Shown piece after piece: positions 998 through 26,807 of a DNA stretch of 64,000 nt. The stretch comes from Thermodesulfobacteriota bacterium (GTDB taxonomy: Bacteria; Desulfobacterota_D; UBA1144; Nemesobacterales; JAJCZQ01). The translations under genes were made by a program, and so were the position numbers. Position 1 is the first letter of the stretch; each line of letters starts with the position of its first letter. Under the pieces are notes generated by a model. The model did not search any database. It saw only the letters and a program-made list of their open reading frames with translations, and was not told the origin of the DNA. Location: the NCBI GenBank assembly GCA_965215275.1, contig OZ244044.1, forward strand, positions 179,679 through 243,678, given 5' to 3'.

Positions 998-1171
998 GGG
1001 ATTACATACTTAATTGCCAAAAAGCTCAGACTACTTCCTGCACTGACTTTAAAGTTTTGGACAGGTCCTGTCAGTATGAGATATTATTTATCCACTTGAC
1101 ATTCGTTCATAATACTTGGTAAAATATAAATGTTATGAAAAATTCAAACATAAAAACACATAGTTCCATTA

Positions 1172-1182
1172 CCCCCCCCCCC
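1172..1182 (+). repeat. Homopolymeric C11 tract about 9 bp upstream of the -35 element of subtilase paralog 1
   Basis: Counted directly in the sequence. The position is homologous to the C10 tract upstream of paralog 2 (G10 at 26808-26817 on the plus strand). Confidence 0.85.
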
Positions 1183-1190
1183 ATATAAAC

Positions 1191-1219
1191 CTGACCTTTC
1201 AGTCTGGTATAAGTATTTT
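1191..1219 (+). promoter_or_regulatory. Putative sigma70-type promoter of paralog 1: cTGACC, a 17-bp spacer, then TATTTT
   Basis: Spacing and spacer sequence (tttcagtctggtataag) are conserved with the paralog 2 promoter (tttcagctggacataag). The ATG at 1229 lies only 9 nt after the -10 element, so the transcript may be leaderless or have a very short leader. Confidence 0.5.
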
Positions 1220-1242
1220 TTAAGAACAATGTTTAAGATAAT

Positions 1243-1252: not shown

Positions 1253-1295
1253 ATCTAAGTCATTACTTACGTTAGTTTTATTTATTCTGTTTATA

Positions 1296-4200
1296 ATGGT
1301 AATAGCTGCAAAAGGGCAGAGCAGCCTGGAAGAAACATTATCTGAATGCAGAGGTATGAGTGCAGACACGGAAGATCCGTTATACGGATGTCAGTGGCAT
1401 CTGAAAAATACAGGACAGTTTAGTATTTCCGGAAATAGAATAACTGCAGGAGAAGATATAAACATAGAGGGAGTGTGGAACGAATACGTATACGGTACCG
1501 GAATTAACGTAGCAGTTGTAAGTGACGGTATCGACCTTTCACATGAGGACCTTTCTGCAAACGTACGTTCCGAACTGAACTATAGTTTTTCTGAGAAAGA
1601 TAATTCTGACAGTTCATCCTTTACCGGAACACGAGCAGCAGGTGTTATTGCAGCGGCTGGATATAACGGACTGGGAGTAAGAGGAACAGCACCTGGTGCG
1701 AGTATATACAGTTACAGGTTATCCGGTGATCTCAGGGAAGCGGACGCGGTGGTCCGTAATAAAGAAATAACAGCAGTATCGGTTAACGGCCTGGGATCTG
1801 AGGACGGAGCTTTTTTTCAGGAGGCTTTATCTTCCTGGGAAGAAGGAGTGGAACTTGGTATAAGTAAAGGGTTTTATGGTAAAGGAGTGTTTTACGTCCG
1901 GGGAGCAGGGGACGGGCATGAGAATAACGATCAGGCTAATTTTTCTGAATATTCTAATTACTACGGCGTAACAGCCGTGTGTTCAACTGACGGTTATGGA
2001 AAAAAGAGTATTTTTTCAGAAGAGGGAGTAAATCTCTGGGTATGTGCACCTGGTTCTGATATTGTAACCACAGATAACAACAACGATTACGTTGTAACTT
2101 CCGGAACATTTCTATCAGCTTCACAGGTCGGAGGAGTGGCTGCACTGCTGAGAGAGATAAACGGGAATCTGAGCTGGAGGGATATAAAGCTTATACTTGC
2201 GGGTTCAGCACGTCAGAACGATTTTTCTGATATTAGCTGGGAGACAGGAGCTGTTAAATACGGCTCTGACACGGAAAGATATAATTATAATCCTAAGTAT
2301 GGTTTTGGCGTGGTAGACGCAGAAGCAGCTGCAGAACTTGCAGGAAGCTGGAAAGGCGTTGGAGAGATGAGGACCGTTACCGCCTTTTCAGATAATGAAA
2401 TAACAATTCCTGATGGAGAAGGAGAAGCGGATGGAATACTTACCTCCACACTTATGATCCCGGACCTGGAGGAAATATTTACGGAATTCGTGGAGGTAGA
2501 ACTTGTTTTCTCTCATGACCGCTTACAGGACCTTAATATACAGATAACCTCTCCTTCCGGGACAGTATCTGAACTTGTGCGGGAGGTTGTAAGGGGATCT
2601 TCGAATGAAGAAGAAAACTGCGTCAGTTACCTGAGAAGAACACATCGTTTCGGGTCGGCTAAGCACCTCGGAGAAGACCCTTCCGGAGAATGGATCCTTA
2701 ATATATCTGATACTGCTTCCGGAGATGCAGAAAACACTGTTACCTTACACTCATGGAGCATTAAGGTATACGGGCATTTTTATCAGGGAACTGGCAATGA
2801 GATAAATCCTAAACATCACAGACTGAATTTTGGCGGTCAGACAATTCAGGATCAGGAGTATCAAGTAGAAGTTCAGATAGCACCATTAGTGCTGCCTAGG
2901 GCAACTGGAGATACTGGAATACAATATAATTTGACTGATGATCCAAACACAGATGGATTTGCCACTAATGTACCAATTGATGGATTGAGTTTTAACCGTG
3001 GAACCAGAACTCTAAGTGGCACACCCACTAATACTGGGTCTTTTGATCTCATATACAGCGCTGTTGGTAGAACAGACGGTACTGCTGCTCAACTTGAGTT
3101 CAACGTTACGGTGGTAAACGTCCCTACCTTCGGAGGTCAGACCATACCAGATCATACGTATGCAAGACTTCAGACAATAAGAAATCCGTTAACTTTTCCT
3201 AAAGCAACGGGAGGGAATGCTCCCTTGACTTACAGTATAACTCCTAAGGTACAGACTGGACTTGCTTTCAGCAGTTCCACTCGGAGGATAACCGGGTCAC
3301 CTGGGACTGTAAGGAGCAGAACTGAGCATACGTATACGGTAACGGACAATGAGGGAGATACGGCTGAGATAACGTTCGGTATAACCGTAGAAGGAAATGA
3401 CAGGAGGCCGCGTTTCAGAGCAGGTGAGAATATCTCTGATAAGTTTTATTTTACAGGTGTTCCGATAACGCCGGTAACGCTGCCCAGGGCAACTAACGGG
3501 AACAGTCCGATAAAATACAGTTTAAATCCTTCTTTACCAACTGGATTGAGCTTTAACGCAAATACCCGGGAGATAAGCGGGACACCGACTGCTGCAAGCA
3601 GTAACACAGAGTATACATACAGAGCATCAGACCTTGATGGAGACAGGCGTGATCTGAAGTTCAGTATCACGGTAAGGGATGCAACTGACGTACCGACCTT
3701 CGGCAGTGAGACGATAGATGATCAGGAGCATACAGCAGGGAGTCAGATAACACCAGTAACGCTGCCTGAGGCAACATCAGGAGATGCTCCGTTAATATAC
3801 CGTTTAACCCCTGCCTTGCCTGATGGATTGATCTATAACAATATCACCGGAGTTATAAGCGGAACACCGACTGCTGCAATGTCTGAGACTATGTATACAT
3901 ATACAGTAACGGATAATGATGGAGATACGGATGAGCTGACGTTTAATATTGAGGTAGCAGCAAGCTTCAGCAACGTAACGATAGAAGATAAGGTGTATAT
4001 AGCAGGTACAGCAGTAACGGAAATGCTGCCTGAGGCAACTGGACATAATGGAACGGTAACCTACAGTTTAACCCCATCATTACCAACTGGACTGGACTTT
4101 AACACAGCTACCCGGGAGATAAGTGGAACACCTTCTGCTGCATCGTCTCAGACTGCTTATACATATACCGTTACTACTGGTGCAGGAGGACCTGCACGAA

Positions 4201-4688
4201 CTTTGACGTTCAGGATAACAGTAGAAGAAGACAGCATGCCGGACTTCAGCGGTACAGCAATACCTGATCGGGTGTACACGGGGAGAGCAATAACGCTGCC
4301 GGAGGCAACGGGAGGGAATCCACCAGTTACTTACAGTATAACACCTGATCTGCCAGCTGGATTGAGATTTAACGAAGTAACGCGGGAAATAAGTGGGACA
4401 CCCAGGAGTGCATCAACAAGAACTTACACGTATACGGTAACGGACAGCAATGGAGATACGGATGATGCGACTTTCATGCTCAGTGTAGAGGTTACTTCTA
4501 CTCCAGGACCAACACCACCACGAGGACCAAGAACGTCAGGTACTGATTCAGGCGGAGGTGGAGGAGGATGTGCCGTCTCAGATCAGATCAGCGTTGTTTA
4601 TGATATTCTCGGAGCAGTGGCATGTCTGATACTTATACCTGTATCAGTAGTTATCAGAAGGAAGAGAAGAGCTCAGATAAAGACGTAG
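1296..4688 (+). CDS. Kexin-like (S8B) subtilase-family surface protein with P-domain, six He_PIG/cadherin-like repeats and a C-terminal Gly/Cys-TM-RRKRR sorting-type signal. The ORF as sequenced begins at 1296; the full-length form would start at ATG 1229 if the C-tract length changed.
   Basis: Asp motif VVSDGIDLSHEDL. The His region is TGTRAAG, where kexins have HGTRCAG. The Ser region is GTFLSAS, where GTS is expected. The P-domain ends in the GEW...HSWSIKVYG pattern. The repeats follow the pattern LPxATGGNxPLTYSxxPxLPxGLxFN..ISGTP..YTYTVTD.GDTD. The C-terminus is GGGGGGCAVS-hydrophobic helix-RRKRRAQIKT. Confidence 0.75.
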   Translation: MVIAAKGQSSLEETLSECRGMSADTEDPLYGCQWHLKNTGQFSISGNRITAGEDINIEGVWNEYVYGTGINVAVVSDGIDLSHEDLSANVRSELNYSFSEKDNSDSSSFTGTRAAGVIAAAGYNGLGVRGTAPGASIYSYRLSGDLREADAVVRNKEITAVSVNGLGSEDGAFFQEALSSWEEGVELGISKGFYGKGVFYVRGAGDGHENNDQANFSEYSNYYGVTAVCSTDGYGKKSIFSEEGVNLWVCAPGSDIVTTDNNNDYVVTSGTFLSASQVGGVAALLREINGNLSWRDIKLILAGSARQNDFSDISWETGAVKYGSDTERYNYNPKYGFGVVDAEAAAELAGSWKGVGEMRTVTAFSDNEITIPDGEGEADGILTSTLMIPDLEEIFTEFVEVELVFSHDRLQDLNIQITSPSGTVSELVREVVRGSSNEEENCVSYLRRTHRFGSAKHLGEDPSGEWILNISDTASGDAENTVTLHSWSIKVYGHFYQGTGNEINPKHHRLNFGGQTIQDQEYQVEVQIAPLVLPRATGDTGIQYNLTDDPNTDGFATNVPIDGLSFNRGTRTLSGTPTNTGSFDLIYSAVGRTDGTAAQLEFNVTVVNVPTFGGQTIPDHTYARLQTIRNPLTFPKATGGNAPLTYSITPKVQTGLAFSSSTRRITGSPGTVRSRTEHTYTVTDNEGDTAEITFGITVEGNDRRPRFRAGENISDKFYFTGVPITPVTLPRATNGNSPIKYSLNPSLPTGLSFNANTREISGTPTAASSNTEYTYRASDLDGDRRDLKFSITVRDATDVPTFGSETIDDQEHTAGSQITPVTLPEATSGDAPLIYRLTPALPDGLIYNNITGVISGTPTAAMSETMYTYTVTDNDGDTDELTFNIEVAASFSNVTIEDKVYIAGTAVTEMLPEATGHNGTVTYSLTPSLPTGLDFNTATREISGTPSAASSQTAYTYTVTTGAGGPARTLTFRITVEEDSMPDFSGTAIPDRVYTGRAITLPEATGGNPPVTYSITPDLPAGLRFNEVTREISGTPRSASTRTYTYTVTDSNGDTDDATFMLSVEVTSTPGPTPPRGPRTSGTDSGGGGGGCAVSDQISVVYDILGAVACLILIPVSVVIRRKRRAQIKT
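2808..4500 (+). repeat. Tandem array of six roughly 95-aa He_PIG/dystroglycan-cadherin-like repeats inside paralog 1
   Basis: The periodic motif PxATGGNAPLTYSITP...TREISGTPT...YTYTVTDNDGDTDE is visible in the translation. Confidence 0.7.
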
Positions 4689-6894: not shown

Positions 6895-7686
6895 GTGTAT
6901 ATTTCAGAAGACGATAATTTAAGTATATACAGATTTAAAGTAGAAAACAGTGGTAAGAACTTTAATTACATAGTTAAATGCAATCAAACGGGAGAATGCG
7001 TTGTGATAGACCCGCTTGACCCGGTTCGATTGCTGAACTTTGTAAGAAAGAACGATATGAGAGTGTCTTATGTAATAAATACCCACGGTCACCCCGATCA
7101 CGTTGAGGGAAATAATCCCATAATTAAGGTTTTTTTGTCATCTAATATCTTAATACACGAACTTGGTATGGATTTTGTTGCACCAAGAGCGGAAGCATTA
7201 AAAGAAGGGGACGTTATAAGTTGTGGTAAACTTAAAATAGATGTTCTGCACACCCCGGGTCACTGCCCCGAACATATTTCTTTAATGATCGGCAGCAATA
7301 TATTTGTAGGAGACACTATTTTTGTCTCCGGATGTGGAAACACAAAGTTCAGAGGTAATACTGATGAACTCTATGAAACTTTCTCAAGTAAGCTGATGAA
7401 ACTGGAAGATGATCTTAATGTGTTCTGCGGGCATGATTATGCAAAAAATAATTTAGAATTTGCTTTAAGTATTGATCATAATAATCCTCATATAAACAGT
7501 AAATTAGAAGAAATTAAAAAACAAAATGAGGTTTTATCTACGATCGGAGAAGAGAAAAAATATAATCCTTTCATGAGAGTTGGTGAAAAAAGTCTGGTCA
7601 GTGCCTTAAAAGAGAAATACCCTGATATGAAGACAGATGAGAGGTCCGTGTTCATTAAATTAAGAGAGCTTAGAGATAACTGGTAA
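6895..7686 (+). CDS. MBL-fold metallo-hydrolase, glyoxalase II-like
   Basis: HxHxDH motif INTHGHPDHVEGN. Size is consistent with a hydroxyacylglutathione hydrolase-like enzyme. Confidence 0.7.
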   Translation: MYISEDDNLSIYRFKVENSGKNFNYIVKCNQTGECVVIDPLDPVRLLNFVRKNDMRVSYVINTHGHPDHVEGNNPIIKVFLSSNILIHELGMDFVAPRAEALKEGDVISCGKLKIDVLHTPGHCPEHISLMIGSNIFVGDTIFVSGCGNTKFRGNTDELYETFSSKLMKLEDDLNVFCGHDYAKNNLEFALSIDHNNPHINSKLEEIKKQNEVLSTIGEEKKYNPFMRVGEKSLVSALKEKYPDMKTDERSVFIKLRELRDNW

Positions 7687-7720
7687 AGTGGTTCTTGTTC
7701 AGGGTAGGGCAGGGGGGGGG

Positions 7721-7741
7721 GCACGTCTCAAGTGGTTTTAA
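7721..7741. repeat. G-rich tract GGGTAGGGCAG11, including an 11-G homopolymer at 7731-7741, lying between convergent 3' ends
   Basis: Seen directly in the sequence. It has G-quadruplex-forming potential. Confidence 0.8.
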
Positions 7742-7749
7742 CTGATTTT

Positions 7750-8541
7750 TTAAAACAGACCTTTACTATAACCACCATCTATCTGAATGGTGTTCCCGGT
7801 TATGTAGCTGGCTCTTTCTGAAACCAGAAAAGCCACCATCGAACTGAATTCTTTTGGGTCGCCGATCCTCCCGACTGGAATATCGGATTCCATACCCTTA
7901 ATAACCGTTGTGAGATCCTTTTTTGTTTCTTCAGCTCTTTTTTCAGCGAGTTCCCTGATCCTATCGGTCATTATCCTTCCAGGACACAGGTTATTAACCA
8001 GTATATTAAACTTTCCATACTCATTGGACAGGGTCTTGGCAAAACCAATTACTCCGGTTCTAGCTGTATTTGAAAGGATAAGACCCTCTATGGGCTGCTT
8101 TACGGCAATTGAAGTAATATTGATTATCCTTCCCCATTTTTGCTTTTTCATGTATGGAAGAACCTCTTTTGTTAAATTAATAACGCTCAGGAGGTTCAGT
8201 TCCAGTGCACTCTGCCAGTCTTTTGATCTGAAGTCTTCAAAATAACCAAAAGGCGGGCCGCCCGCGTTGTTTATAACTATGTGAACCGTTTTATATTCTT
8301 TTATGGTGGACCTAACGACGTTTTTTATATCTTTGGTACTTTTTGCATCGGCTCTTAAAGATAGGACCCTGGTTTTGTATTTTTCTCTTATTTCGTCTGC
8401 TGTTTTTCTGATATCAGCTGAATTTCTTGAAAATATAGTTAAGTTACATCCTTCGGCAGCCAATTCTTCGGCACATGCTCTGCCCAGTCCTTTGCTGGAT
8501 GCTGATATTATTGCAACTTTGTCCTTTATACCTAAATTCAT
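7750..8541 (-). CDS. SDR-family oxidoreductase
   Basis: N-terminal dinucleotide-binding motif SASSKGLG and an NNAG motif. The canonical YxxxK appears to be replaced by S...R (SNTARTGVIGFAK); this comes from a memory-based alignment. Confidence 0.65.
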   Translation of the reverse strand: MNLGIKDKVAIISASSKGLGRACAEELAAEGCNLTIFSRNSADIRKTADEIREKYKTRVLSLRADAKSTKDIKNVVRSTIKEYKTVHIVINNAGGPPFGYFEDFRSKDWQSALELNLLSVINLTKEVLPYMKKQKWGRIINITSIAVKQPIEGLILSNTARTGVIGFAKTLSNEYGKFNILVNNLCPGRIMTDRIRELAEKRAEETKKDLTTVIKGMESDIPVGRIGDPKEFSSMVAFLVSERASYITGNTIQIDGGYSKGLF

Positions 8542-9188: not shown

Positions 9189-9530
9189 ATGAGCACGATA
9201 TTTGATCAGATCATAAATAGAGAAATTCCCGCGGATATAGTTTACGAAGATGATCTTTGTATAGCGTTCAAGGATATAAATCCCAAGGCACCGGTCCATA
9301 TACTCATAATACCCAAAAAAAATATCGTATCTTTAGCTACAACGGACCAGGAAGACCTGAAGGTCTTAGGACACATCATGATAAAGACGGCTGAGATAGC
9401 AAGGAACGAGGGAATTGAAGAGTCCGGCTACCGTGTAGTGACAAATATCAACGCAGATGCCGGTCAGAGCGTTTTTCACCTGCATTTTCATATTTTAGGT
9501 GGAAGGAAGATGACGTGGCCTCCAGGCTAA
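9189..9530 (+). CDS. HIT-family (histidine triad) hydrolase
   Basis: HLHFHILGG histidine-triad motif. Confidence 0.8.
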   Translation: MSTIFDQIINREIPADIVYEDDLCIAFKDINPKAPVHILIIPKKNIVSLATTDQEDLKVLGHIMIKTAEIARNEGIEESGYRVVTNINADAGQSVFHLHFHILGGRKMTWPPG

Positions 9531-9539
9531 ACGTCTTTT

Positions 9540-12398
9540 TTACTGAATTCCAAGCACTTCAGCGTCTCTGTCACAGAGCATTCCACCGTCGGTCCTTTTC
9601 TTTACGGTCTCATCACGTTTCCAGGACCTTTCACATCGTGCTTCCATCGTTAGATCATTGACTTCGACCTTCAGGTCGTTACCGTTCTTTATATTGAAAC
9701 GGCTTACTCCGCAGAGGTCGGCAAGTTCAGGTTCATAGGGTTTTATAGTATTATAGAGGTCGCTGTTTAAACTTATCTGAATACCAGCGTCCAGCGGATT
9801 GGAAATACCGTGCGATTTGGCCTCTTCAAGTCGTTTCATACATTGACTTCGTATGTTCAAGACCTCGTTCCAGGCGTTATCCAGCTTAATACTTTCAACG
9901 TCGGGGAATTCAGTAAGATGTACACTTTTTACATCATCAGCCCCGCACTGTTCATTAAGGCACCTGTATGCTTCATCAGCGGTATGTACTAATATTGGTG
10001 CCAGTAATCTTATTAAACCATCTGCTATATCGTACATAATGGTCTGGGAGCGTCTGCGGCGTCTGCTGTCCCGCCTGTCGCAGTATAACCTGTCTTTTAC
10101 AGCTGCCAGATAAACTGAACTTAAAGTTTCAGAGCAGAAACTGAATATTAACTCCCCTGCCCTTTTGTAATCAAATTCAGAATAAGCTTTTTTTGTTCTT
10201 GTGACGAATATAGAAAAATTTACATAGGCCCAGTGGTCAATGGACAGCTTATCTTCATCCGCTGTAAGGTCTGTTTTGTCTTTCTCGGGGTCAAAATCGC
10301 TTATATTGCCCAGCAGGAACCTGATCGTGTTTCTGATCTTCCTGTACTCGTCAGCTGCAACTTCAAAGTATCTCCAGTCCGTCTTTATGTCATTTGAGTA
10401 TTTTAAGTTACTGACCCACCATCTGCATACATCTGCTCCGTGTTTTTTTAATATTTCATCCACATCCAGTGCATTTCCGCCTGATTTGCTCATCTTTTTA
10501 CCGTGAACGTCGACCATAAAGCCGTGAGTGAGAATTCCCCTATATGGTGGTTCACCCGTCACTCCGAGTGCCAGGAGCAAAGACAGATGGAACCAGCCGC
10601 GATGTTGATCGGAACCTTCAAGGTAAAGGTCCGCCGGATATCCTATACTGCGTTTCTGGTGCTTTAAGACCGAGTTCCATGAAGAACCGGATTCGAACCA
10701 CACGTCAAATATATCCATTCCCTTACTGAGCTTGCCTTTGATCAGTTCCGGTTCGTTCTTTATCCAGTCCGGTGCATCAGGGTCATCTGCGGGGTCGTAA
10801 CCCTCAAGTATATGCTCGGCGTCTTCTATGAACCATACATCTGAACCTTTTTCTTTTATCTTGGAAGCAACAAGTTCCACGGTTCGTACCGTTAACAGAT
10901 GCTCTCCCCTGTCATTGGTGAAGTAAGGTATTGGAAGTCCCCAGGACCTCTGTCTTGATATACACCAGTCCGGTCGTGCTTCAAGCATGCCTCTCAGCCT
11001 GTTCCTTCCCCATTCGGGGAAGAACCTTACTTTGTTCACTACGCCGTCAATAGCTTTGTCCCGCAGTGTCTTACCGTCTTTACCATAAGGCTTGTCAACG
11101 GCTACGAACCACTGTTTGGCTGCTCTGAAGATCGTAGGGGTCTTGCTGCGCCAGTCATGGGGATAGCTGTGAAAGTACTCCTCTTCATGGAACAGGTGCC
11201 CGTTTTTCCTTAGCGCATCGATCACTAACTTATTTCCCTTCCATACGTTTACACCCTGCAGCCAGTCCGGAACGGTTTTATCAAAAGTACCGTCCTCCAG
11301 TACGGGGCAGTAAATGTCCAGTCCTTCCTTCAGTCCGGTCTGATAATCTTCGATCCCATGTCCTGGAGCAATGTGAACGATCCCTGTTCCATCTTCAAAA
11401 GTAACGTACTCTGCACCGACGACCACACCACGTCTTTGCATGAATGGATGAACATAGGTAATGCCGCTTTCGGCAAGTTCATCTCCTTTGAAACTCCCGA
11501 TCTTTTTGAAACTTCCCGTACCGGATCTGCCGAACACTTTTTCTGCAAGCAGTTCGGAAAGTATCGTGATTATTTTCTTACCCCAGTGCGTTATTTCATA
11601 TAGACCGTAATCTCCCACTGGTGAAACGGCTGCTGCCAGGTTTGCCGGAAGCGTCCATGGAGTGGTCGTCCAGATCATCAGATAGATATCTTTTCCTGAA
11701 ACTTCGACTGGTAAGGGCAAGTTATTAGTGTCGTCTATCTGAAAAAGGACAAAGATACTTTTATCCTTTCTGTCGTAGTACTCAAGTTCTGCGTCTGCAA
11801 GAGCTGTTTGATTTTCAATTGACCAGTGGATCGGCTTCAGGTCCCTGTAAACGAGCCTGTTATCTATAAGCCGTGCGAACACTTCCAGAACCCCTACTTC
11901 ATACCTGGGGACCATTGTCAGGTACGGGTTATCATAATTCCCGGTAGTTCCAAGCCGTTTCATCTGACCTGACTGGACCTTGACGAACTTACTGGCGTAA
12001 TTAAAGCATTTATTTCTGATCTTCAGCTTTGTATAGCCCCTTGCACTGTCCCCCAGGTCTTTAAGGACCTTATGTTCAATGGGAAGTCCATGACAGTCCC
12101 AGCCGGGAATAAAATCCACGTTATAGCCTTCCATGGTCTTGGACCTCACTACAAGGTCCTTGAGGACTTTATTTAAAAGATGTCCAAGGTGGATCGGTCC
12201 GTTCGCATAAGGAGGACCGTCGTGGAAAATAAATTTTTCCCTGTGTTCAGACCGCTCTCTTGTTTTTTCATAAAGCTTTTCCTCGGCCCAGGCCTTCTGG
12301 AGCGCGGGTTCACGCTGGGTTAAGTTAGCTTTCATTGGAAAGCTGGTCCTGGGAAGGTTCAGGGTGTTTTTATAATTTATCTTTTTTACAGTAGACAT
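9540..12398 (-). CDS. ileS: Isoleucine--tRNA ligase
   Basis: Class I HIGH motif (PYANGPIHLGH) and KMSKS motif; length 952 aa. Confidence 0.9.
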   Translation of the reverse strand: MSTVKKINYKNTLNLPRTSFPMKANLTQREPALQKAWAEEKLYEKTRERSEHREKFIFHDGPPYANGPIHLGHLLNKVLKDLVVRSKTMEGYNVDFIPGWDCHGLPIEHKVLKDLGDSARGYTKLKIRNKCFNYASKFVKVQSGQMKRLGTTGNYDNPYLTMVPRYEVGVLEVFARLIDNRLVYRDLKPIHWSIENQTALADAELEYYDRKDKSIFVLFQIDDTNNLPLPVEVSGKDIYLMIWTTTPWTLPANLAAAVSPVGDYGLYEITHWGKKIITILSELLAEKVFGRSGTGSFKKIGSFKGDELAESGITYVHPFMQRRGVVVGAEYVTFEDGTGIVHIAPGHGIEDYQTGLKEGLDIYCPVLEDGTFDKTVPDWLQGVNVWKGNKLVIDALRKNGHLFHEEEYFHSYPHDWRSKTPTIFRAAKQWFVAVDKPYGKDGKTLRDKAIDGVVNKVRFFPEWGRNRLRGMLEARPDWCISRQRSWGLPIPYFTNDRGEHLLTVRTVELVASKIKEKGSDVWFIEDAEHILEGYDPADDPDAPDWIKNEPELIKGKLSKGMDIFDVWFESGSSWNSVLKHQKRSIGYPADLYLEGSDQHRGWFHLSLLLALGVTGEPPYRGILTHGFMVDVHGKKMSKSGGNALDVDEILKKHGADVCRWWVSNLKYSNDIKTDWRYFEVAADEYRKIRNTIRFLLGNISDFDPEKDKTDLTADEDKLSIDHWAYVNFSIFVTRTKKAYSEFDYKRAGELIFSFCSETLSSVYLAAVKDRLYCDRRDSRRRRRSQTIMYDIADGLIRLLAPILVHTADEAYRCLNEQCGADDVKSVHLTEFPDVESIKLDNAWNEVLNIRSQCMKRLEEAKSHGISNPLDAGIQISLNSDLYNTIKPYEPELADLCGVSRFNIKNGNDLKVEVNDLTMEARCERSWKRDETVKKRTDGGMLCDRDAEVLGIQ

Positions 12399-12825: not shown

Positions 12826-14232
12826 CTACTTCATAAAATGTGTACTGTTGCCGTAGAACATTTCGGCAGCTTCCATAAAGGTTTCCGTAAGCGTTGGGTG
12901 CGGATGTACGGACAGTGATATATCGGACGCTAATGTTGCCATCTCTACTCCCAGAACACCTTCAGAGATAAGTTCTCCCGCCCCTGTTCCTGCTATCCCG
13001 GCGCCAAGCAGTCGCTCGGTTTTAGCATCGAAGATCATTTTTGTCAGTCCATCTGTTTTATTGAGGGTCATGGCCCTGCCTGAAGCTCCCCATGGGAACC
13101 TGGTTATTTTTACATCTATATTATTCCGTCTGGCTTCTTTCTCCGTTAACCCGCACCATGCGATCTCAGGGTCGGTAAAGACCACTGCGGGTACGGCTGC
13201 TACGTCGTATATGACGTTTTGACCGGCAATGACCTCTGCGGCCACCCTGCCCTCATGAGTGGCCTTATGGGCGAGCATGGGTTCACCTGCCACGTCCCCT
13301 ACGGCGTAAATGTTCGGTTCATACGTTCTTTTCTGTCTGTCCGTTTCAATAAATCCCATGCTGTTCACCTTTACCTTCGTGTTCTCAAGTCCGATACCTT
13401 CGGAGTTAGGTTGCCGTCCGGTTGATATCAGCACTTTGCTGAACTGACGTTCAAACTTACCGTCATCTTTGTTCTCGAACGTAACCTTTATCCCTTTATT
13501 CGTTTTTCTGACCCCGGTCACCTTTGTACCGAGCAGGATCAAGCTAAACTCCTTTTTCAGTTTTTTATAAAGAACGCTGGACAGGTCATTATCCGCCGCT
13601 TCGATTATAGAGTCGAGCATTTCCACGACCGTTACGTTCGAACCCAGGGACGCATATACCGTACCCATCTCGAGTCCTATGTATCCCCCACCGATAACCA
13701 GGAGTTCTTCTGGCACGCTTTCAAGCGCTAAGGCACCTTCTGAGTTCATTATTTTTTTATTATCCACTTTTATTCCGGGTATGTCTGCCGGTCTGGACCC
13801 CGTGGCAATGATACAGTTCTCAAAACTGACCGTCTCTTCAGAACCGTTCTCTTTCGTAACCTTCATTGTTTTTGAACTTGTAAGGGTCGCGGTTCCACTT
13901 ATATAATTGATCTTTCTTTTTTTTACCAGAAAACCGGCCCCGCTCGTCAGCCTGTTTATTATCTGCTCCTTCCACTGCACCATTTTTTTCAGATCTATGC
14001 TGGGGTCGTCGTAAGTTATGCCGATCTTTTCTGCATCTTTTGATCCGCTTAGAACGCTCGCGGCGTGAAGTAACGCCTTTGACGGGATGCATCCACGGTA
14101 AAGGCACTCACCACCTGGGTTTTTTTCACGGTCTATCAGGGTAACCCTGAGTCCCAGGTCCGCGGCCCTGAAAGCTGCTGGATATCCCCCTGGACCGGCA
14201 CCTATTATGGCTAACTGTGTGTTTATGCTCAT
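12826..14232 (-). CDS. lpdA: Dihydrolipoyl dehydrogenase (E3)
   Basis: GAGPGGY FAD motif and redox-active CLYRGCIPSK disulfide motif. Confidence 0.9.
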   Translation of the reverse strand: MSINTQLAIIGAGPGGYPAAFRAADLGLRVTLIDREKNPGGECLYRGCIPSKALLHAASVLSGSKDAEKIGITYDDPSIDLKKMVQWKEQIINRLTSGAGFLVKKRKINYISGTATLTSSKTMKVTKENGSEETVSFENCIIATGSRPADIPGIKVDNKKIMNSEGALALESVPEELLVIGGGYIGLEMGTVYASLGSNVTVVEMLDSIIEAADNDLSSVLYKKLKKEFSLILLGTKVTGVRKTNKGIKVTFENKDDGKFERQFSKVLISTGRQPNSEGIGLENTKVKVNSMGFIETDRQKRTYEPNIYAVGDVAGEPMLAHKATHEGRVAAEVIAGQNVIYDVAAVPAVVFTDPEIAWCGLTEKEARRNNIDVKITRFPWGASGRAMTLNKTDGLTKMIFDAKTERLLGAGIAGTGAGELISEGVLGVEMATLASDISLSVHPHPTLTETFMEAAEMFYGNSTHFMK

Positions 14233-15626: not shown

Positions 15627-18314
15627 TCATACGAACAATGGATTTGATTTATTAACATCTATTTTAAACTGCTTCTTGGCTTTATTCAGTAATTTCTTAT
15701 CGATAATTCCCTTTTTATAGAGCTCTGCCAGGCTCGAGTACGCTATATGTTCCGCATTTACCTCAAAATGGTACCTGAGCATTTCTCTGTTGTCGCTTCT
15801 GCCAAAACCGTCCGTGCCAAGCGTTACGAGCGGCTTGGGAAACCACTTTGAGACGGTATAGGGCACTGCTTTTATATAATCACACACTGCAACGTATATA
15901 CCGCTGTCGTTATTATCGAAACATCTTTCGATGTAGTTCTTTTTACGCTTTTTCCCCGCGTTCAGGATGTTCCATCTGTCCGTGTCCTGCGCATCTTTAT
16001 AGAGTTCCTTGTAGCTCGTGACGCTCCAGACGTCCGTGGTGATCCCGTATTGCGTCTCCAGTATTTTAGAAGCCCTTATCACTTCATTTAAAACGCCGCC
16101 ACTTCCCAGAAGGTTTACGTGCCTTTCAGGGTCTCTTTCCGGACTTTCTTTAAAGCGGTACATACCTTTGATGATCCCTTCCTCTACGCCTTCCGGCATT
16201 GCCGGCTGTTCATATATTTCATTCAGCAGCGTTACGTAATAGAAAACGTCTTCATACTCCATGTACATACGCCTGATACCGTCCTTGATGATAACCGCAA
16301 GTTCGTAAGCGTAAGCAGGATCATACGCTATTATCGTAGGATAGGAAAAAGCGTAATGATGGCTGTTGCCATCCTGATGCTGCAGTCCCTCGCCGGCAAA
16401 CGAACTCCTGCCGGAAGTGCATCCGATAAAGAACCCTTTACATTTCATATCCGACCCCGCCCAGATAAGGTCCCCTACCCTCTGAAAGCCGAACATCGAA
16501 TAGAACGTGAAAAAAGGGATGGTATTTACACCATGGGTCGCATAGGCGGTGCCGGCAGCTATGAACGATGAGAATGCCCCTGCTTCGGTTATTCCTTCTT
16601 CCAGTATCTGTCCATCCGTTGCTTCTTTGTAATAAAGGAAAGTATCAGAATCCACTGGCTCGTAAACCTGTCCCACATGGGAATATATACCTGCCTGTCT
16701 GAAAAGGGATTCCATACCGAACGACCTTGCTTCATCAGGGATGATAGGTACTATCAGCTTTCCGATCTCCTTGTCCCTCAGGAGTTTTGAAAGCAGTCTT
16801 ACATAAGCCATGGTGGTTGCTGCACCTCTGCCACCGGAACCTTTGTAGAATTCGTCAAATACCGTCTCATCATATCCTTTTATGGGCTGTCCCAGCACTT
16901 TTCTTGCAGGCAGATAGCCTCCGAGTTTTTCCCTTTGCTGTTTTAGATATTCGACTTCAGGACTGTCATCGTCCGGTTTGTAGAACGGTGCTCTGGCAAC
17001 GTCTTCATCTGATATTGGTATACTGAAACGCGTTCTGAACTCCTTAAGTTCCTCTTCGTTCAGTTTTTTCTGATTATGAGTAACGTTCCTGCCTTCTCCA
17101 GCCTCTCCCAGTCCATATCCCTTTATCGTTTTTGCAAGTATGACCGTTGGCTCTCCTTTATGTCCGGTGGCCTCTTTATATGCCGCATACACCTTTTCAC
17201 TGTCATGTCCGCCTCTTCTCAGCTTTTCAAGTTCGTAGTCCGAATACGTTCTCACGAGGTCTTTCAGCTTCGGATGGGTCCCGAAAAAATGTTCCCTTAT
17301 GTATGCACCGTCTTCAACTATGTACTTCTGATAGTCACCGTCCACGGCACTTTCCATCCTTTGAACGAGCAGTCCATCTTCATCTTTTTCCAAAAGAGGG
17401 TCCCAGTCGTCACCCCATATCAGCTTGATGACGTTCCACCCTGCGCCTCTGAATATCCTTTCGAGCTCCTGTATTATCTTTCCATTTCCTCTGACGGGAC
17501 CGTCCAGTCTTTGCAGATTGCAGTTCACTACGAATATCAGATTGTCAAGACTTTCTCTTGACGCAAGGGTTATTGCCCCAAGGGATTCAGGTTCATCGGT
17601 CTCACCATCTCCCATGAAAACCCAGACCTTGCTGTCTATATTCTTTTTTAATCCCCTGTCTTCAAGATATCTGTTGAACCTTGCCTGATAGATCGCCATG
17701 ATCGGAGAAAGTCCCATGGAGACGGTGGGGATCTCCCAGAAATCCGGCATAAGCCATGGATGTGGATATGAGGACAGCCCGGCACCATGGGTCAGTTCTT
17801 TTCTGTAGTTCCTGATCTGCTTGACCGTGATCCTTCCCTCAAGGAAAGCACGGGCGTATATACCCGGAGCGGCATGCCCTTGAAAATAAACTATATCTCC
17901 ATCCTGATTTTCGTTACTGGCTTTCAGGAAGTGATGGAACGCCACTTCGAACAAAGTAGCACAGGAAGCGTAAGTGGAGATATGACCTCCTATACCTTCA
18001 TCGTTCCTGTTGGCCCTCACGACCATTGCCATCGCGTTCCACCTTATGATGTTCCTGATCCTTCGCTCTATATCTGTATTCCCTGGATACTTGGGCTGTT
18101 TACTGAAGGGAATTGTATTTATATAAGGCGTGTTGGCGGTATAAGGTACTGCTATGCCCGCTTTTTGCGAGTATATCTGAAGATTTCTCAGTAACTTTTG
18201 GACCCTGGCGTGTCCAGAGGTCTTGAGAACGGCCTCCAGGGATTCTATCCACTCCCTGTCTTCTGTTTCTTCTTGATGTTCCACACTTTCGTCTTTTTGG
18301 TATGACATGGACAT
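15627..18314 (-). CDS. aceE: Pyruvate dehydrogenase E1 component, homodimeric type
   Basis: 895 aa, with E1 ThDP-binding regions, located upstream of E2 and E3. Confidence 0.85.
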   Translation of the reverse strand: MSMSYQKDESVEHQEETEDREWIESLEAVLKTSGHARVQKLLRNLQIYSQKAGIAVPYTANTPYINTIPFSKQPKYPGNTDIERRIRNIIRWNAMAMVVRANRNDEGIGGHISTYASCATLFEVAFHHFLKASNENQDGDIVYFQGHAAPGIYARAFLEGRITVKQIRNYRKELTHGAGLSSYPHPWLMPDFWEIPTVSMGLSPIMAIYQARFNRYLEDRGLKKNIDSKVWVFMGDGETDEPESLGAITLASRESLDNLIFVVNCNLQRLDGPVRGNGKIIQELERIFRGAGWNVIKLIWGDDWDPLLEKDEDGLLVQRMESAVDGDYQKYIVEDGAYIREHFFGTHPKLKDLVRTYSDYELEKLRRGGHDSEKVYAAYKEATGHKGEPTVILAKTIKGYGLGEAGEGRNVTHNQKKLNEEELKEFRTRFSIPISDEDVARAPFYKPDDDSPEVEYLKQQREKLGGYLPARKVLGQPIKGYDETVFDEFYKGSGGRGAATTMAYVRLLSKLLRDKEIGKLIVPIIPDEARSFGMESLFRQAGIYSHVGQVYEPVDSDTFLYYKEATDGQILEEGITEAGAFSSFIAAGTAYATHGVNTIPFFTFYSMFGFQRVGDLIWAGSDMKCKGFFIGCTSGRSSFAGEGLQHQDGNSHHYAFSYPTIIAYDPAYAYELAVIIKDGIRRMYMEYEDVFYYVTLLNEIYEQPAMPEGVEEGIIKGMYRFKESPERDPERHVNLLGSGGVLNEVIRASKILETQYGITTDVWSVTSYKELYKDAQDTDRWNILNAGKKRKKNYIERCFDNNDSGIYVAVCDYIKAVPYTVSKWFPKPLVTLGTDGFGRSDNREMLRYHFEVNAEHIAYSSLAELYKKGIIDKKLLNKAKKQFKIDVNKSNPLFV

Positions 18315-18383
18315 TTCTCTTCAGCAATTTTAATCAATAGTGAAAAAAGTAAAAGGTTTATAATGAACGTAATATAGTTATAT

Positions 18384-19700
18384 AAGGGAATTATAGTGAA
18401 TAGTTGACAGGAAGAAAAATTGAAAACGGGTCAGAAAATGGGTAATATTATAGCATGGTTAGAACGATCACAAGAACTGTAAAGGCAGATAGTGTTTTTC
18501 ATAAAAGGCTGGATGAATTCTTACAACAGCTTACCGACCTGTATAACGGAGCTTTATATCACAGATTAAGATCTTATGACTGGTATGAAAAAACTATCTC
18601 TAAATACGAACAGTTTAACGAACTAACTGAGGTCCGAGAGCAAGACAAGGAATTTGAAAAGTTTAATGTTGTAGCTCAAAGAAGCGTTCTGGAAAGACTG
18701 GATAATGCATATAGTCCTTATTTGAACTATTTAAAGAATAAAAAAGCAGGAAAGAAGGTGGGCAGACCAAAATACAAAGGTCCAAACAGACCTGTCAGAA
18801 GTTTTGAAACAAACAATTATAAAAACATTGAAAAGATCGGCAGAAGAACGTATTTAACGATAAAGGGACTTGGCAGATTATCTTTCAAAGGTTCTATGCC
18901 TGATGGAGTTGTTTTAAAACAACCTAAAACAACAATAAGGATAGTTAAAACTGCTATAAGGATAAAGATCCAGTTTCTATGTGAGTTTACCAGCGAAAAG
19001 AAAAGACCTATGGACAGGTCCATAGGGATCGATCTTGGAATTATAAACAGAATGGCTTTTTCAGATGGAACTAAAATACCAGGAGTTCGGTTGAACAGAA
19101 AGGAACTGAAAAGAAAGCAGAGAATTGTTTCAAGAGCGGTAAAAGGTTCTGACAGCAGAAAGAAGAAAGTTTTATCGTTAGCAAAGGAATGGGAACGAAC
19201 TACCGATCGTGAAAATAACGCTATACACAGAATGACTACCGAAATAGTAAAAAAGAACAATCATATAAAGTTGGAGGATTTAAAGATCCAAAATATGGTA
19301 AAAAATCCTTATTTAGCAAGAAGTGTAACGGAACAGCAATGGGGGAAGATTAAAACCCAACTTGACTACAAAGCCGAGATAGCTGGAGGCAAGTTAGTTT
19401 TAGTTAATTCCCATTATACAACAATGACCTGTTCTGAATGCGGAAAGGTAAATCCAAAACTGCCTTTGTCTGAAAGAGTATTTAACTGTATATATTGCGG
19501 TTATTCAGAAGACAGGGATATAAATGCAGGTAAAAATATCAATACTCTTAATGAAGGAGACTTCATATCGGGTGGGAATAAGGTAGAAATACTCCCGATG
19601 AGTGCTAAGAGTATCAGATCAAAAGAGAACAGGGATAGAGGAACTCTGCACTCAGAACAGTACGAGTAGTTGTTTGTCAACTATTCACTATAATTCCCTT
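18384..19700 (+). mobile_element. TnpB-only insertion element (IS200/IS605-family OrfB type) bounded by perfect 26-bp terminal inverted repeats
   Basis: 18384-18409 reads AAGGGAATTATAGTGAATAGTTGACA, and 19675-19700 is its exact reverse complement. Confidence 0.75.
18455..19669 (+). CDS. tnpB: TnpB (OrfB) RuvC-like RNA-guided nuclease-family transposase accessory protein
   Basis: RuvC-I motif IGIDLGI. C-terminal zinc finger CSECG...CIYCG. RuvC-III motif RDINAGKNI. Confidence 0.8.
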   Translation: MVRTITRTVKADSVFHKRLDEFLQQLTDLYNGALYHRLRSYDWYEKTISKYEQFNELTEVREQDKEFEKFNVVAQRSVLERLDNAYSPYLNYLKNKKAGKKVGRPKYKGPNRPVRSFETNNYKNIEKIGRRTYLTIKGLGRLSFKGSMPDGVVLKQPKTTIRIVKTAIRIKIQFLCEFTSEKKRPMDRSIGIDLGIINRMAFSDGTKIPGVRLNRKELKRKQRIVSRAVKGSDSRKKKVLSLAKEWERTTDRENNAIHRMTTEIVKKNNHIKLEDLKIQNMVKNPYLARSVTEQQWGKIKTQLDYKAEIAGGKLVLVNSHYTTMTCSECGKVNPKLPLSERVFNCIYCGYSEDRDINAGKNINTLNEGDFISGGNKVEILPMSAKSIRSKENRDRGTLHSEQYE

Positions 19701-19788
19701 ACATAAGTAATGCCAATGGCAGAAAAACCATGTAATATATACCTGATTCATTATTGACCAGAATAATGATACATATGATATTAATCCT

Positions 19789-21219
19789 ATGAAAAAATTC
19801 GACCTGACTATTATCGGTTCCGGACCGGGTGGGTATATAGCAGGAATTCGTGCTGCACAGCTTGGTATGAACGTTGCGGTAATTGAACGTGACAAACCTG
19901 GTGGGGTCTGTCTGAACTGGGGCTGTATACCTTCTAAAGCGATACTTAAATGTGCAGAAGTTTACAACTATATTATCAGTTCGGAAAATTACGGTATTAA
20001 AGCGGACGGGGTTTCGTACGACTACTCAAAAGTAGTAGATAAAAGCCAAAATGCATCATCGACCTTGAACAAAGGTGTTGAGTTCCTGCTTAAAAAGAAC
20101 AACGTCACCCTGTTCAAAGGGGTCGGAAAGATCGTAAAGGAAGATCAGATAGCCGTTCTTAACAAGGAAAGCACTGAGATCCATTCGGATAAGGTCCTTA
20201 TAGCTACCGGCTCGGTACCAAGAACGATCCCCGGTCTGGAAATAGACGGCAAAATAGTTATGACCAGTGATGAAGCGATCAGACACCGCGAAGTTCCCAG
20301 ATCCGTTGTAATTATAGGCGGTGGTTATATAGGAGTGGAATTTGCCTACGTTTATAACTCTTTCGGCAGTAAAGTTACGATCGTTGAAATGGAAAAGAAC
20401 ATTATTCCAGGGGCTGATGAGGAAGTCGCACAGGAACTGCGGAAGATCTTTAAAAAACAAGGGATAGAGGTACTTACTGAAACTAAATACAGGTCTGTCA
20501 AAAAGCAGAAGACATCCGCTACCGTAACGGTCGAGAACGTACGCTCAGGTGAGGAAAAAAATATAAAAGCTTCGTTGGTGTTGGTTGCAATTGGGCGGAG
20601 AGCAGTTGCAAATGCTTCCCCGTCTTCTTTCAGTTATTACGGAAAGAAGGAAAGTCTTGGGCTTGAAGAGATCGGCGTTGAGCTCAGTGATGACGGTTTT
20701 ATCAAGGTCGATAAGGATTATATGACGACTAAAAACAATATCTATGCCATTGGCGACGTCATAGGTCCCCCTCTGCTGGCACATAAAGCCTCCGAAGAAG
20801 GTGTTGCGGCGGTAGAGATCATGAACGGGATCAAAAGCAAGGTTCACTATAACAAGATACCGGGCTGCGTTTATTGTCAGCCCGAAGTAAGTACCCTCGG
20901 TCTTACCGAAAAACAGGTAAAGGAACAGGGTTTTGACTACACGGTCGGGAAATTTCCGTTCAAGGCCGCAGGAAAAGCCGTTGCCGTAGGTGATACAGAT
21001 GGATTTGTAAAGATCCTGTCTGACAAAAGGACCGGCGAGATACTCGGAGCTCATATCATAGGACATGGAGCCACGGAACTGATAGCAGAACTTGGCCTGG
21101 CGTCTTCCCTTGAAGCCACGCCCCTTGAGATCTCATACACCTCTCATGCTCACCCTACTCTTTCTGAAGCGATCATGGAAGCTGCACTGGGAGCGTTAGG
21201 AAGAACGCGCAATTTCTGA
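19789..21219 (+). CDS. lpd: Dihydrolipoyl dehydrogenase, a second copy
   Basis: GSGPGGY and CLNWGCIPSK motifs. Confidence 0.85.
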   Translation: MKKFDLTIIGSGPGGYIAGIRAAQLGMNVAVIERDKPGGVCLNWGCIPSKAILKCAEVYNYIISSENYGIKADGVSYDYSKVVDKSQNASSTLNKGVEFLLKKNNVTLFKGVGKIVKEDQIAVLNKESTEIHSDKVLIATGSVPRTIPGLEIDGKIVMTSDEAIRHREVPRSVVIIGGGYIGVEFAYVYNSFGSKVTIVEMEKNIIPGADEEVAQELRKIFKKQGIEVLTETKYRSVKKQKTSATVTVENVRSGEEKNIKASLVLVAIGRRAVANASPSSFSYYGKKESLGLEEIGVELSDDGFIKVDKDYMTTKNNIYAIGDVIGPPLLAHKASEEGVAAVEIMNGIKSKVHYNKIPGCVYCQPEVSTLGLTEKQVKEQGFDYTVGKFPFKAAGKAVAVGDTDGFVKILSDKRTGEILGAHIIGHGATELIAELGLASSLEATPLEISYTSHAHPTLSEAIMEAALGALGRTRNF

Positions 21220-21248
21220 ACATCCTGCCGTTCAAGTCGTTTACTGCC

Positions 21249-21923
21249 ATGAGCACGCTTGATATATACCACCTTGGAACGATCAGTTACAAGGATGCCA
21301 TGGATATACAGTTCAAGCTGCTCGAAAAGAGGATCAATAAAGAGATAAACGACTCTCTTTTACTGCTTGAGCATCCATCAACGATCACAATTGGCAGAAG
21401 CGGTAAAAGATCCAATCTTCTTATTTCCGACAGTTATTTAAAAAGCAGAAATATAGAATTTTTTGAAACGAACAGAGGTGGGGACATAACGTTCCATGGT
21501 CCGGGACAGATCGTATGCTACCCGATCATAGACCTGGATGATCGCACAAAGGACGTTCATAAGTATATAAGGGATTTGGAAGAAATAATTATAGAGACCC
21601 TTAAGGAATTTGACGTTGAAGGGCAGAGGATCGATGGACTGACCGGAGTATGGACGAAGGGGTGCAAGGTCGCGTCTATTGGAGTGGGTATAAGAAGATG
21701 GACCACCTATCATGGGTTTGCCATTAATGTAAATACTGACCTTGATCTTTTTGATCTTATAATCCCATGTGGAATTGCTGACGTTGAAATGACCTCTATA
21801 AAACGCTGTAATGACCTTGAAGACAAAATAGAGATGGATTCCGTCTGTAAGATCATTATTGAAAAGTTCATTAACGAGTTTAAGTATCTTGAAACAGAGG
21901 AAAAAACGTTAGTTACTGACTGA
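21249..21923 (+). CDS. lipB: Lipoyl(octanoyl) transferase
   Basis: LipB-like domain including the RGGDITFHGPGQ motif. Confidence 0.8.
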   Translation: MSTLDIYHLGTISYKDAMDIQFKLLEKRINKEINDSLLLLEHPSTITIGRSGKRSNLLISDSYLKSRNIEFFETNRGGDITFHGPGQIVCYPIIDLDDRTKDVHKYIRDLEEIIIETLKEFDVEGQRIDGLTGVWTKGCKVASIGVGIRRWTTYHGFAINVNTDLDLFDLIIPCGIADVEMTSIKRCNDLEDKIEMDSVCKIIIEKFINEFKYLETEEKTLVTD

Positions 21924-22019
21924 AACGACCCTGTCTAAGGCAAATTTCTCTTCCCTGTGCTCTCTATACTTCCTGCACAAATAATCTAACCTATACATAC
22001 TAATGAAAGCACATTGTTG

Positions 22020-22690
22020 TCACGGTATTTGTGAACCTAACTGTCCTGTGTCAGCGTCGACCGCTATGCAAGGGTTGCTCGTAGGACTGAAGAAGGACCA
22101 AACGCCGGTGCAATCAGCCATATTCAAAGCATTTAGCTGTGTTCCATCATCATCCAGTACCGGTATAGGAAGGTTTGCAGAGTCAGATGCTTCTTGTACA
22201 AGAACATAAGGACACTTAATAATGTCCGCCATTTCCGGGGCATTGGGACGACCTGACCAAAAACCACGCCATTCTTTTTCATTCATATTGTTTTGTACAA
22301 GGTTGTATATTCCGGGATTGATAAATTCACCAGGGCGGGATTCAACGCTGGTCTGGTAAAACAGCACCATGGAATTTCTTCCAGGATTTCCTTTACTATC
22401 TTGCTGATTGGAACCGATGTATCCTACTTGTCTAAAATGGTGTCGCCTGCCATTATCGTCAATGAATGTGCTTGTAGCCAGTATGTTGTTTTCGTTAAGC
22501 GTTACCTCTTCCATAACTTCAAAAGCACATATTGGCGTATTATTTGCCCCTAATGTTGTATAATATCCAACCCACTCCACTGGGGCTGGAGAACTGTCCT
22601 TACTATCACATGCGAATATAGTTGCTCCAGCAAGTAGAATTCCTGCAAATACTGAACTAATCTTTTTGTAATGTCGTAAAATAATATTTC
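22020..22690 (-). CDS. Hypothetical lipoprotein. The signal peptide lies upstream of the tracked ORF and has no in-frame canonical start codon.
   Basis: The in-frame upstream translation is KKISSVFAGILLAGATIFAC-DSKD, a lipobox. A stop lies 20 codons further upstream and no ATG, GTG or TTG is available. The IS end sits about 60 nt away. Confidence 0.5.
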
Positions 22691-26694: not shown

Positions 26695-26732
26695 AAAGCA
26701 CAGAAGAAAGAAAAAAGGAATTAATAACTTAT

Positions 26733-26744: not shown

Positions 26745-26767
26745 AGAAACTTCAACATTATTATATT

Positions 26768-26796
26768 ATTGTACTTATGTCCAGCTGAAAGGTCAA
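26768..26796 (-). promoter_or_regulatory. Putative sigma70 promoter of paralog 2: TTGACC, a 17-bp spacer, then TACAAT
   Basis: Near-consensus hexamers with 17-bp spacing. The ATG at 26758 is 9 nt after the -10 element. Confidence 0.6.
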
Positions 26797-26807
26797 GTAT
26801 ATATGGA

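Follow-up and report, generated by a model that had tools for sequence, protein, structure and literature searches.

Tandem duplication of a promoter, start codon and poly-C cassette in two paralogous S8-family genes of an uncultured bacterium

Introduction

Homopolymer contingency loci are textbook material for a few host-adapted pathogens. NalP of Neisseria meningitidis is a phase-variable, subtilisin-like autotransporter (PMC3723659). In Bordetella, the fim2, fim3 and fimX genes form a surface-protein gene family with a poly-C stretch of 10-15 bases in the 5' region (PMC1891110 and its references 26 and 27). This C-stretch lies between an activator site and the -10 element, and its length alters that spacing (PMC1891110). 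Bordetella bapC contains two homopolymeric tracts within one open reading frame (ORF) (PMC1891110). In Helicobacter pylori, a T-tract adjacent to the -35 element of sabA acts as a rheostat by way of DNA shape and UP-like elements (PMC4081817), and the gene carries 5' coding CT repeats besides its promoter repeat (PMC2715451).

Here we describe two paralogous genes, designated gene 1 and gene 2, in a 64,000-nt stretch of DNA from an uncultured Thermodesulfobacteriota bacterium (assembly GCA_965215275.1, contig OZ244044.1, positions 179,679 to 243,678). This whole stretch is referred to as the window, and coordinates refer to it unless a contig is named. Each gene carries two poly-C tracts, designated tract 1 and tract 2, and two candidate promoters, an upstream P_A followed by ATG_A and a downstream P_B followed by ATG_B. 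Tract 1 lies just upstream of P_B, and tract 2 lies in the coding region behind ATG_B.

NalP is a close functional counterpart of the coding-tract switch. In both cases the gene of a secreted S8-family protein has a C run just past its start codon, a one-base change switches the frame, and ON and OFF states coexist. The window proteins differ from NalP in having a kexin-like S8B domain, a P domain, He_PIG repeats and a C-terminal transmembrane (TM) anchor, with no autotransporter. They also belong to a family of approximately 20 copies in an uncultured lineage and have lost catalytic residues, and their genes have a predicted leaderless mRNA and a duplicated cassette. As in bapC, the 5' part of a surface-protein gene holds two consecutive C-runs, both of which must be permissive; unlike those of bapC, the runs in the window belong to two tandem promoter-ATG-tract cassettes, each with its own start codon.

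An earlier note on this DNA had likened tract 1 to the C-stretch of the fim promoters, with which it shares its length class and its 5' location in genes of a surface-protein family. A fim-like role is not supported by the geometry, however: the -35 and -10 hexamers keep a constant 17-nt spacer, with the tract outside it, 8-11 nt upstream of the -35 hexamer. Judged by position, the nearest transcriptional analogue of tract 1 is the sabA T-tract. sabA likewise has two simple-sequence repeats, of which one is found in the 5' coding region and the other less than 20 nt ahead of a -35-like hexamer. In contrast to that of sabA, the tract in the window is poly-C, lies downstream of a stronger promoter and is located inside an ORF, and an effect on mRNA is known for sabA only. 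The coding poly-C frame switch is already known, and the window genes are set apart by a tandemly duplicated cassette, each copy of which has its own promoter and ATG.

Results and Discussion

Four poly-C tracts lie at two paralogous genes

The called ORFs of gene 1 (1296-4688, plus strand) and gene 2 (24241-26694, minus strand) each encode a Peptidase_S8 domain, a proprotein-convertase P domain and He_PIG repeats. Tract 1 of gene 1 is a C11 run at 1172-1182 that ends 8 nt upstream of the P_B -35 hexamer, and tract 2 is a C10 run at 1243-1252 in the coding region, 11 nt after ATG_B. On the minus strand, tract 1 of gene 2 is a C10 run at 26817-26808, followed by TCC, 11 nt upstream of the P_B -35 hexamer, and tract 2 is a C12 run at 26744-26733, again coding and 11 nt after ATG_B. 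The earlier note had placed all four tracts at these coordinates, and its count of five homopolymers of at least 10 nt in the window, four of them at the two loci, was borne out. Its estimate of approximately 40% GC was low, as the window measured 43.6%. From base and dinucleotide frequencies, 0.076 C or G runs of at least 10 nt were expected in the 64-kb window, compared to the five observed.

The fifth homopolymer is a G10 run at 7712-7721. It lies where a gloB-like gene (6895-7686, plus strand) and an SDR gene (7750-8541, minus strand) converge, in the 63 nt that separate their 3' ends, and has no obvious role.

Tract 2 as a predicted reading-frame switch

The lengths of the tracts were varied in silico. 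The length series of tract 2 changed the reading frame, in agreement with the earlier claim of one coding tract per gene. Gene 1 was ON at C9 and C12, where translation from ATG_B reads MFKIIPPPSKSLLTLVLFILFIMVIAAKGQ, and gene 2 was ON at C11 and C14, where it reads MLKFLPPPHKLLIPFFFLLCFVSISAYGK. As assembled, both genes are OFF, that is, out of frame at tract 2, although the exact lengths, and with them the OFF calls, depend on homopolymer sequencing accuracy. Tract 2 has the layout of a classic slipped-strand frame switch, with the 5' position and the +/-1 frame change of a contingency locus.

Approximately 20 further called ORFs of the family are present in the 1.99-Mb source genome (P0001-P0029, P0122, P0124, P0130), most of them called as N-terminally truncated proteins. 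The database protein P0029 is identical to the product of gene 2, and P0131 is identical to the neighboring Ham1 protein. Both database proteins are encoded on a contig of 1,990,023 bp, which is therefore the source of the window. Read-through of the tract, visible as IIPPP, was found in P0007, P0008, P0017, P0122 and P0130. In P0007, P0008, P0122 and P0130 the ON-state N-terminus reads MNI[FLS]F[KR]IIPPP, which confirms ATG_B as a family-type start. Tract lengths among the paralogs range from C8 to C12 with both ON and OFF states represented, a comparison between paralogs and not between orthologous alleles. Such a mixture of ON and OFF members is the pattern expected of a contingency family.

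The two genes carry a tandem duplication of the family cassette

The comparison set consisted of seven contigs with family members, from related SPAdes metagenome assemblies of 41-44% GC. All five tract-bearing paralogs on these contigs (on L051, L053, L054, L055 and L057) have a single cassette. Its layout is TTGACA, an 18-nt spacer, TAAAAT, TAGAAT or TAGAGT, a gap of 9 or 10 nt, ATG AAC AT., 21 nt, and a C8 or C9 run, followed by the signal peptide. When the regions were aligned with MAFFT, P_A of the window genes aligned with the canonical promoter of the paralogs, and tract 1 together with P_B (approximately 90 nt) appeared as an insertion directly after the start codon. P_A of gene 1 aligned with the sole promoter of the L051, L053, L054 and L055 paralogs, and the P_A cassette of gene 2 is 79% identical to that of L055. 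Since the five paralogs have a single cassette, the window genes carry a tandem duplication of the 5' promoter-ATG-poly-C switch cassette of the family, and the upstream copy contributes tract 1 as its coding-type tract.

The duplication is also evident within each gene. In gene 2, a 46-nt direct repeat (26756-26801 versus 26843-26888) runs from the -35 hexamer to the ATG with 76% identity and a period of 87 nt. In gene 1, the tracts with their flanks form a 21-nt direct repeat that is 86% identical at a spacing of 70 nt. A repeat finder placed the tracts and flanks of both genes 70-72 nt apart; the whole cassette has a period of 95 nt in gene 1, against 87 nt in gene 2. The similarity of the spacers between the A and B copies of gene 2, and between the B copies of the two genes, was reached by 0 of 2000 shuffles in each case. 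A cassette profile searched with nhmmer recovered only the nine known copies in approximately 220 kb of sequence, with the B copy of gene 1 as the weakest match at 18 bits. No gene other than the two in the window was found to have the double cassette.

Sequence upstream of the canonical promoter is common to the window (1000-1095) and to L055 (approximately 9745-9815), L051 (approximately 9905-9960) and L054 (approximately 1735-1785). It includes ggggattayatayttaa, common to gene 1, L055, L051 and L054, and ctgactttaaagttt, common to gene 1 and L055. This shared sequence indicates that a conserved or recombining 5' cassette reaches approximately 100 nt beyond the -35 hexamer.

Candidate promoters and start codons of the four cassette copies

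P_A of gene 1 (1096-1125, plus strand) has the form TTGACA(1096)-18-TAAAAT(1125) with a TG extended -10, scored 11/12 in a promoter scan, and is followed after 9 nt by ATG_A at 1135. P_B of gene 1 (1191-1219, plus strand) consists of CTGACC (1191-1196), a 17-nt spacer and TATTTT (1214-1219). It scored 8/12 and was missed by the promoter scan. ATG_B (1229-1231) lies 9 nt after its -10 hexamer and begins the family-type N-terminus MFKIIPPP. On the minus strand, P_A of gene 2 (26883-26855) reads TTGACA(26883)-17-TAGAAT(26855) and scored 11/12, with ATG_A (26845-26843) 9 nt after the -10 hexamer. P_B of gene 2 (26796-26768), composed of TTGACC (26796-26791), 17 nt and TACAAT (26773-26768), scored 10/12. 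Its ATG_B (26758-26756), again after a 9-nt gap, begins MLKFLPPP.

The P_B hexamers, the 17-nt spacers and the 9-nt gaps to ATG are all present as the earlier note had described. The spacers it called near-identical match at 12 of 17 ungapped positions, although their similarity is significant by the shuffles given above. P_B is, however, the weaker, derived copy, and the stronger P_A (11/12) upstream of tract 1 had been overlooked. The core TGACCTTTCAG-N6-ATAAGTA occurs at exactly two places in the window, both P_B, with 0.09 matches expected by chance. A metagenome motif scan with TGACCTTTCAGN6ATAAGTA returned 12 matches, all of them unrelated chance ones.

In all nine cassette copies the gap from the -10 hexamer to ATG is 9-10 nt, with a purine at the seventh position. 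This gap is too short for a transcribed Shine-Dalgarno sequence and gives a near-leaderless geometry. The short or leaderless 5' ends proposed earlier hold as a prediction: a leaderless mRNA, or one with a leader of approximately 0-3 nt, is predicted from the gap. Among other genes on the related contigs, approximately half have a clear Shine-Dalgarno sequence, whereas TATAAT lies 5-12 nt from the start in several. From these sequence patterns, the organism appears to use both Shine-Dalgarno and leaderless modes.

Tract 1 lies within an upstream ORF

The position of the canonical promoter upstream of tract 1 suggests that tract 1 is probably transcribed, within a short ORF of 17-40 codons. In gene 1 the ORF from ATG_A (1135-1188, plus strand) runs through tract 1 and, as assembled, encodes MKNSNIKTHSSITPPPI before its stop codon. 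In gene 2 the ORF from ATG_A (26845-26729, minus strand) is in frame with ATG_B as assembled and encodes MSLKTRISVTPPPPYILDLSAGHKYNNIIMLKFLPPPP, with a stop after tract 2.

The fate of the ATG_A ORF was read in each gene across the simulated lengths of tract 1, and the same three outcomes were obtained in both. In the first, the ORF stopped early; at C11, which is the assembled length in gene 1, the stop lay 40 nt short of ATG_B in gene 1 and 34 nt short of it in gene 2. In the second, it stopped close to ATG_B, at a distance of 5 nt in gene 1 and 2 nt in gene 2 (C9 and C12 in each). In the third, it ran in frame into ATG_B, at C10 and C13 in gene 1 and at C10, the assembled length, in gene 2.

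The seven cassette copies other than the B copies each have at least one stop codon in phase with the ATG within the preceding 50 nt, and the 9-nt gap makes the TAA or TAG of the -10 hexamer (TAA-AAT, TAG-AAT) itself such a stop. In contrast, in-phase stops are absent from both B copies, in which the -10 hexamer is TAT-TTT (gene 1) or TAC-AAT (gene 2). The stop-free B copies are suggestive of selection for translation through P_B, a contrast of roughly p = 0.03-0.16 that rests on two non-independent copies and perhaps one substitution.

The leader transcribed from P_A is predicted to fold weakly (-9 to -11 kcal/mol), and the accessibility of ATG_B was constant across tract 1 lengths. Both observations make an RNA-structure mechanism unlikely, and Rfam gave no matches in the window. 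An invertible promoter was also considered and set aside, as only weak, scattered inverted repeats were found.

Tract 1 as a possible second reading-frame gate

At about even probability, we favor a reading in which the duplicated contingency cassette places tract 1 in a short, probably leaderless upstream ORF transcribed from the canonical P_A, where any effect it has would be that of a second reading-frame gate. The family cassette consists of a sigma-70-type promoter (TTGACA, 17 or 18 nt, TAnAAT), an ATG placed 9-10 nt downstream of the -10 hexamer, and a poly-C run that encodes Pro-Pro-Pro in the n-region of the signal peptide, so that slipped-strand changes would switch the frame ON and OFF. 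The upstream copy keeps the stronger, family-canonical P_A and its own ATG, and transcripts from P_A would hold tract 1 inside a short 5'-terminal ORF. The length of tract 1 would then set the fate of ribosomes that start at ATG_A, which may terminate early, 34-40 nt before ATG_B, stop near it, or read through in frame. Termination 2-5 nt before ATG_B would permit re-initiation. Tract 2 would then decide whether the frame enters the signal peptide, so that the effect of tract 1 would most likely be on the reading frame and in series with that of tract 2. P_B may also remain able to fire, in which case tract 1 would be bypassed. The earlier proposal of a two-layer switch remains plausible, but it is more likely that both layers gate the reading frame than that one is transcriptional and the other translational.

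The first alternative is that tract 1 is functionally neutral and was merely left by recent gene conversion or tandem duplication of the 5' cassette; it may slip, but tract 2 alone would control expression, whichever of the promoters is in use. The restriction of the double cassette to the two window genes, against single cassettes in five of five paralogs elsewhere, speaks for such an origin. The 5' cassettes are also approximately 75-85% alike in DNA, versus 48% for the proteins, which suggests recent homogenization. Between tract 1 and ATG_B, the differences between the peptides of gene 1 and gene 2 are nearly all nonsynonymous, a pattern of no purifying selection that fits a peptide free of sequence constraint, and the predicted N-terminal extension (the peptide from ATG_A to ATG_B) had no homologue in a database of 5.8 billion protein sequences; both findings also count against the reading-frame gate. 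Yet both genes keep at least 10 uninterrupted C residues, an ATG_A exactly 9 nt after the -10 hexamer and an open frame across P_B. Moreover, if P_A is active, ribosomes from ATG_A must somehow interact with ATG_B. We regard a neutral tract 1 as possible but doubtful.

The second alternative is that P_B is the working promoter, with tract 1 (at approximately -44 to -56) tuning transcription and tract 2 gating translation, in a manner like that of sabA. Tract 1 would then shift the phasing or distance of upstream A-rich boxes, or of an activator site, relative to the core promoter. Both genes keep TTGACC or CTGACC, the 17-nt spacer, TAnnnT, the 9-nt gap and the identical core, and A5 runs lie at approximately -70 and -84 from the predicted P_B start of gene 1. 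In the B copy of gene 1, moreover, the 9-nt gap was kept despite an indel and a relocated ATG. This is the best argument for P_B as a live promoter, and the constant distance between ATG_B and TAnnnT counts against the reading-frame gate, as it suggests that P_B is still selected as a promoter. Rheostat tracts are known within 20 nt upstream of a -35 element (PMC4081817), a position that tract 1 shares, at 8 nt from the hexamer in gene 1 and 11 nt in gene 2, and repeats in both the promoter and the coding region are known from sabA (PMC2715451). On the other hand, P_B of gene 1 matches at only 8 of 12 positions and is the weakest profile match, and a stronger promoter with its ATG lies directly upstream. 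Changes in tract 1 would move that other promoter, and no recognizable activator site, relative to P_B, and the tract does not lie within the promoter spacing as in fim. The sabA rheostat depends on intrinsically bent A/T tracts, and poly-C tracts are not known for such bending. Tract 1 is poly-C, and the upstream A5 runs lie within the ATG_A ORF. Single-cassette paralogs also do without any upstream tract. Tuning of P_B by tract 1 is, on balance, unlikely.

An origin of the tracts, or of their lengths, in sequencing or assembly error is highly improbable. Homopolymers are error-prone and one related contig (L052) ends in G-rich junk (13546-13573), but four tracts lie at matching positions in two paralogs 25 kb apart, independent SPAdes assemblies of two further samples have C8-C9 coding tracts at the equivalent codon, and it is the tract that encodes IIPPP at the N-terminus of the family. 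The end of L052 (13546-13628) contains G12 and G9 runs in G/C-rich low-complexity sequence and is artefact-like.

A fuller version of the reading-frame gate can be put forward only tentatively. Here the cassette duplication would have made a serial two-tract gate, with loading of ribosomes on the 5'-terminal AUG, tract 1 leading to abortion, re-initiation or an extended pre-protein, and tract 2 gating the signal peptide. Such a serial gate, if real, would lower the ON frequency or diversify the ON states in a surface pseudo-protease family of approximately 20 members. The duplicated cassette is a natural experiment in the evolution of a switch module and offers a testable homopolymer in a predicted leaderless upstream ORF. 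It also shows that a promoter-like match beside a repeat can be a relic copy, and that comparison with paralogs alters the mechanistic reading.

The encoded proteins and their family

From the end of tract 2, gene 1 (1253-4688, plus strand) encodes the h-region of a signal peptide, an S8 subtilase domain, a P domain, five He_PIG repeats and a C-terminal GGGGGGC...TM...RRKRR tail. Gene 2 (24241-26732, minus strand) encodes a signal peptide, an N-terminal domain, an S8 domain, a P domain, a He_PIG repeat and a C-terminal GGGGC...TM...RRK tail. The two proteins are 48% identical. Both matched the Pfam models PF00082 and PF01483, which identifies a Peptidase_S8 and a P domain in each, and their best relatives in the PDB were furin and kexin (E = 1e-31).

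In the alignment, the catalytic His of furin (RHGTR) is replaced by Arg in gene 2 (GRGTR; GRGTRVAG) and by Thr in gene 1 (FTGTR; FTGTRAAG), and Phe replaces the catalytic Ser in gene 1 (SGTFLSAS). Neither protein has the Asp-His-Ser catalytic triad of an active S8 protease. HGT and GTS are retained by some paralogs. Judging by these residues, the gene 1 and gene 2 products are probably catalytically dead kexin-like surface proteins, and members of this paralog family may serve as variable surface binders and not as proteases.

The C-terminus of every family member (4540-4688 and 24241-24390 in the window) consists of a Gly run, Cys, [AVT][VI]S, approximately 20 hydrophobic residues and RRK(I/R)R. 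By appearance, this tail looks like a sorting or anchor signal; against curated models it gave sub-threshold matches only (Synerg-CTERM and GVDTG-CTERM).

A poly-C cassette family of approximately 20 paralogous surface-protein genes in an uncultured bacterium with a genome of approximately 2 Mb is a sign of strong pressure to diversify, exerted by a host, phage or predator on a lineage for which phase variation has not been described. Family members also seem to move or turn over, as L058, which carries the closest relative of the Ham1 gene (89% identity), has an unrelated, tract-free gene of 219 aa at the position of gene 2. Two TnpB/IS605-family ORFs with a Cas12f1-like TNB domain (18455-19669 and 22745-23962) lie close to gene 2. 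A contig scan for homologues yielded matches of 31-48% identity only, nearly all from Dehalococcoidia/Chloroflexota metagenome-assembled genomes of 58-66% GC, and none of these homologues had a tract near the gene. A literature search linking phase variation with Chloroflexota returned nothing.

Other homopolymers and tract-free paralogs on the related contigs

A tract-free sub-family (L052 6570, L052 10001 and L056 10001) has the N-terminus MQVPSFYLLCF or MQFPSFYLLYF. Its upstream region differs from the cassette and is mutually conserved, and from this sequence arrangement the sub-family may be expressed constitutively.

On L052, a G10 run (12940-12949) ends 5 nt before the ATG of a paralog (start at approximately 12955, MNNCKKITLRNIISVVLLLFSFLCFMSIGAYGQ), in an 18-nt gap after the preceding gene. 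This run occupies a ribosome-binding or 5'-UTR position and is not coding. On L053, a C10 run (19371-19380) lies in the middle of a paralog, at the boundary of the S8 and P domains, where two ORFs were called (17768-19390 and 19525-22395). The mid-gene run could mark either an internal frame switch or a pseudogene.

On L055, a C9 run (9256-9264) lies approximately 60 nt into an unrelated ORF of 172 aa (9194-9712) that has a signal-peptide-like start and a strong Shine-Dalgarno sequence. Judging from this run, poly-C switching in the lineage may extend beyond the S8 family.
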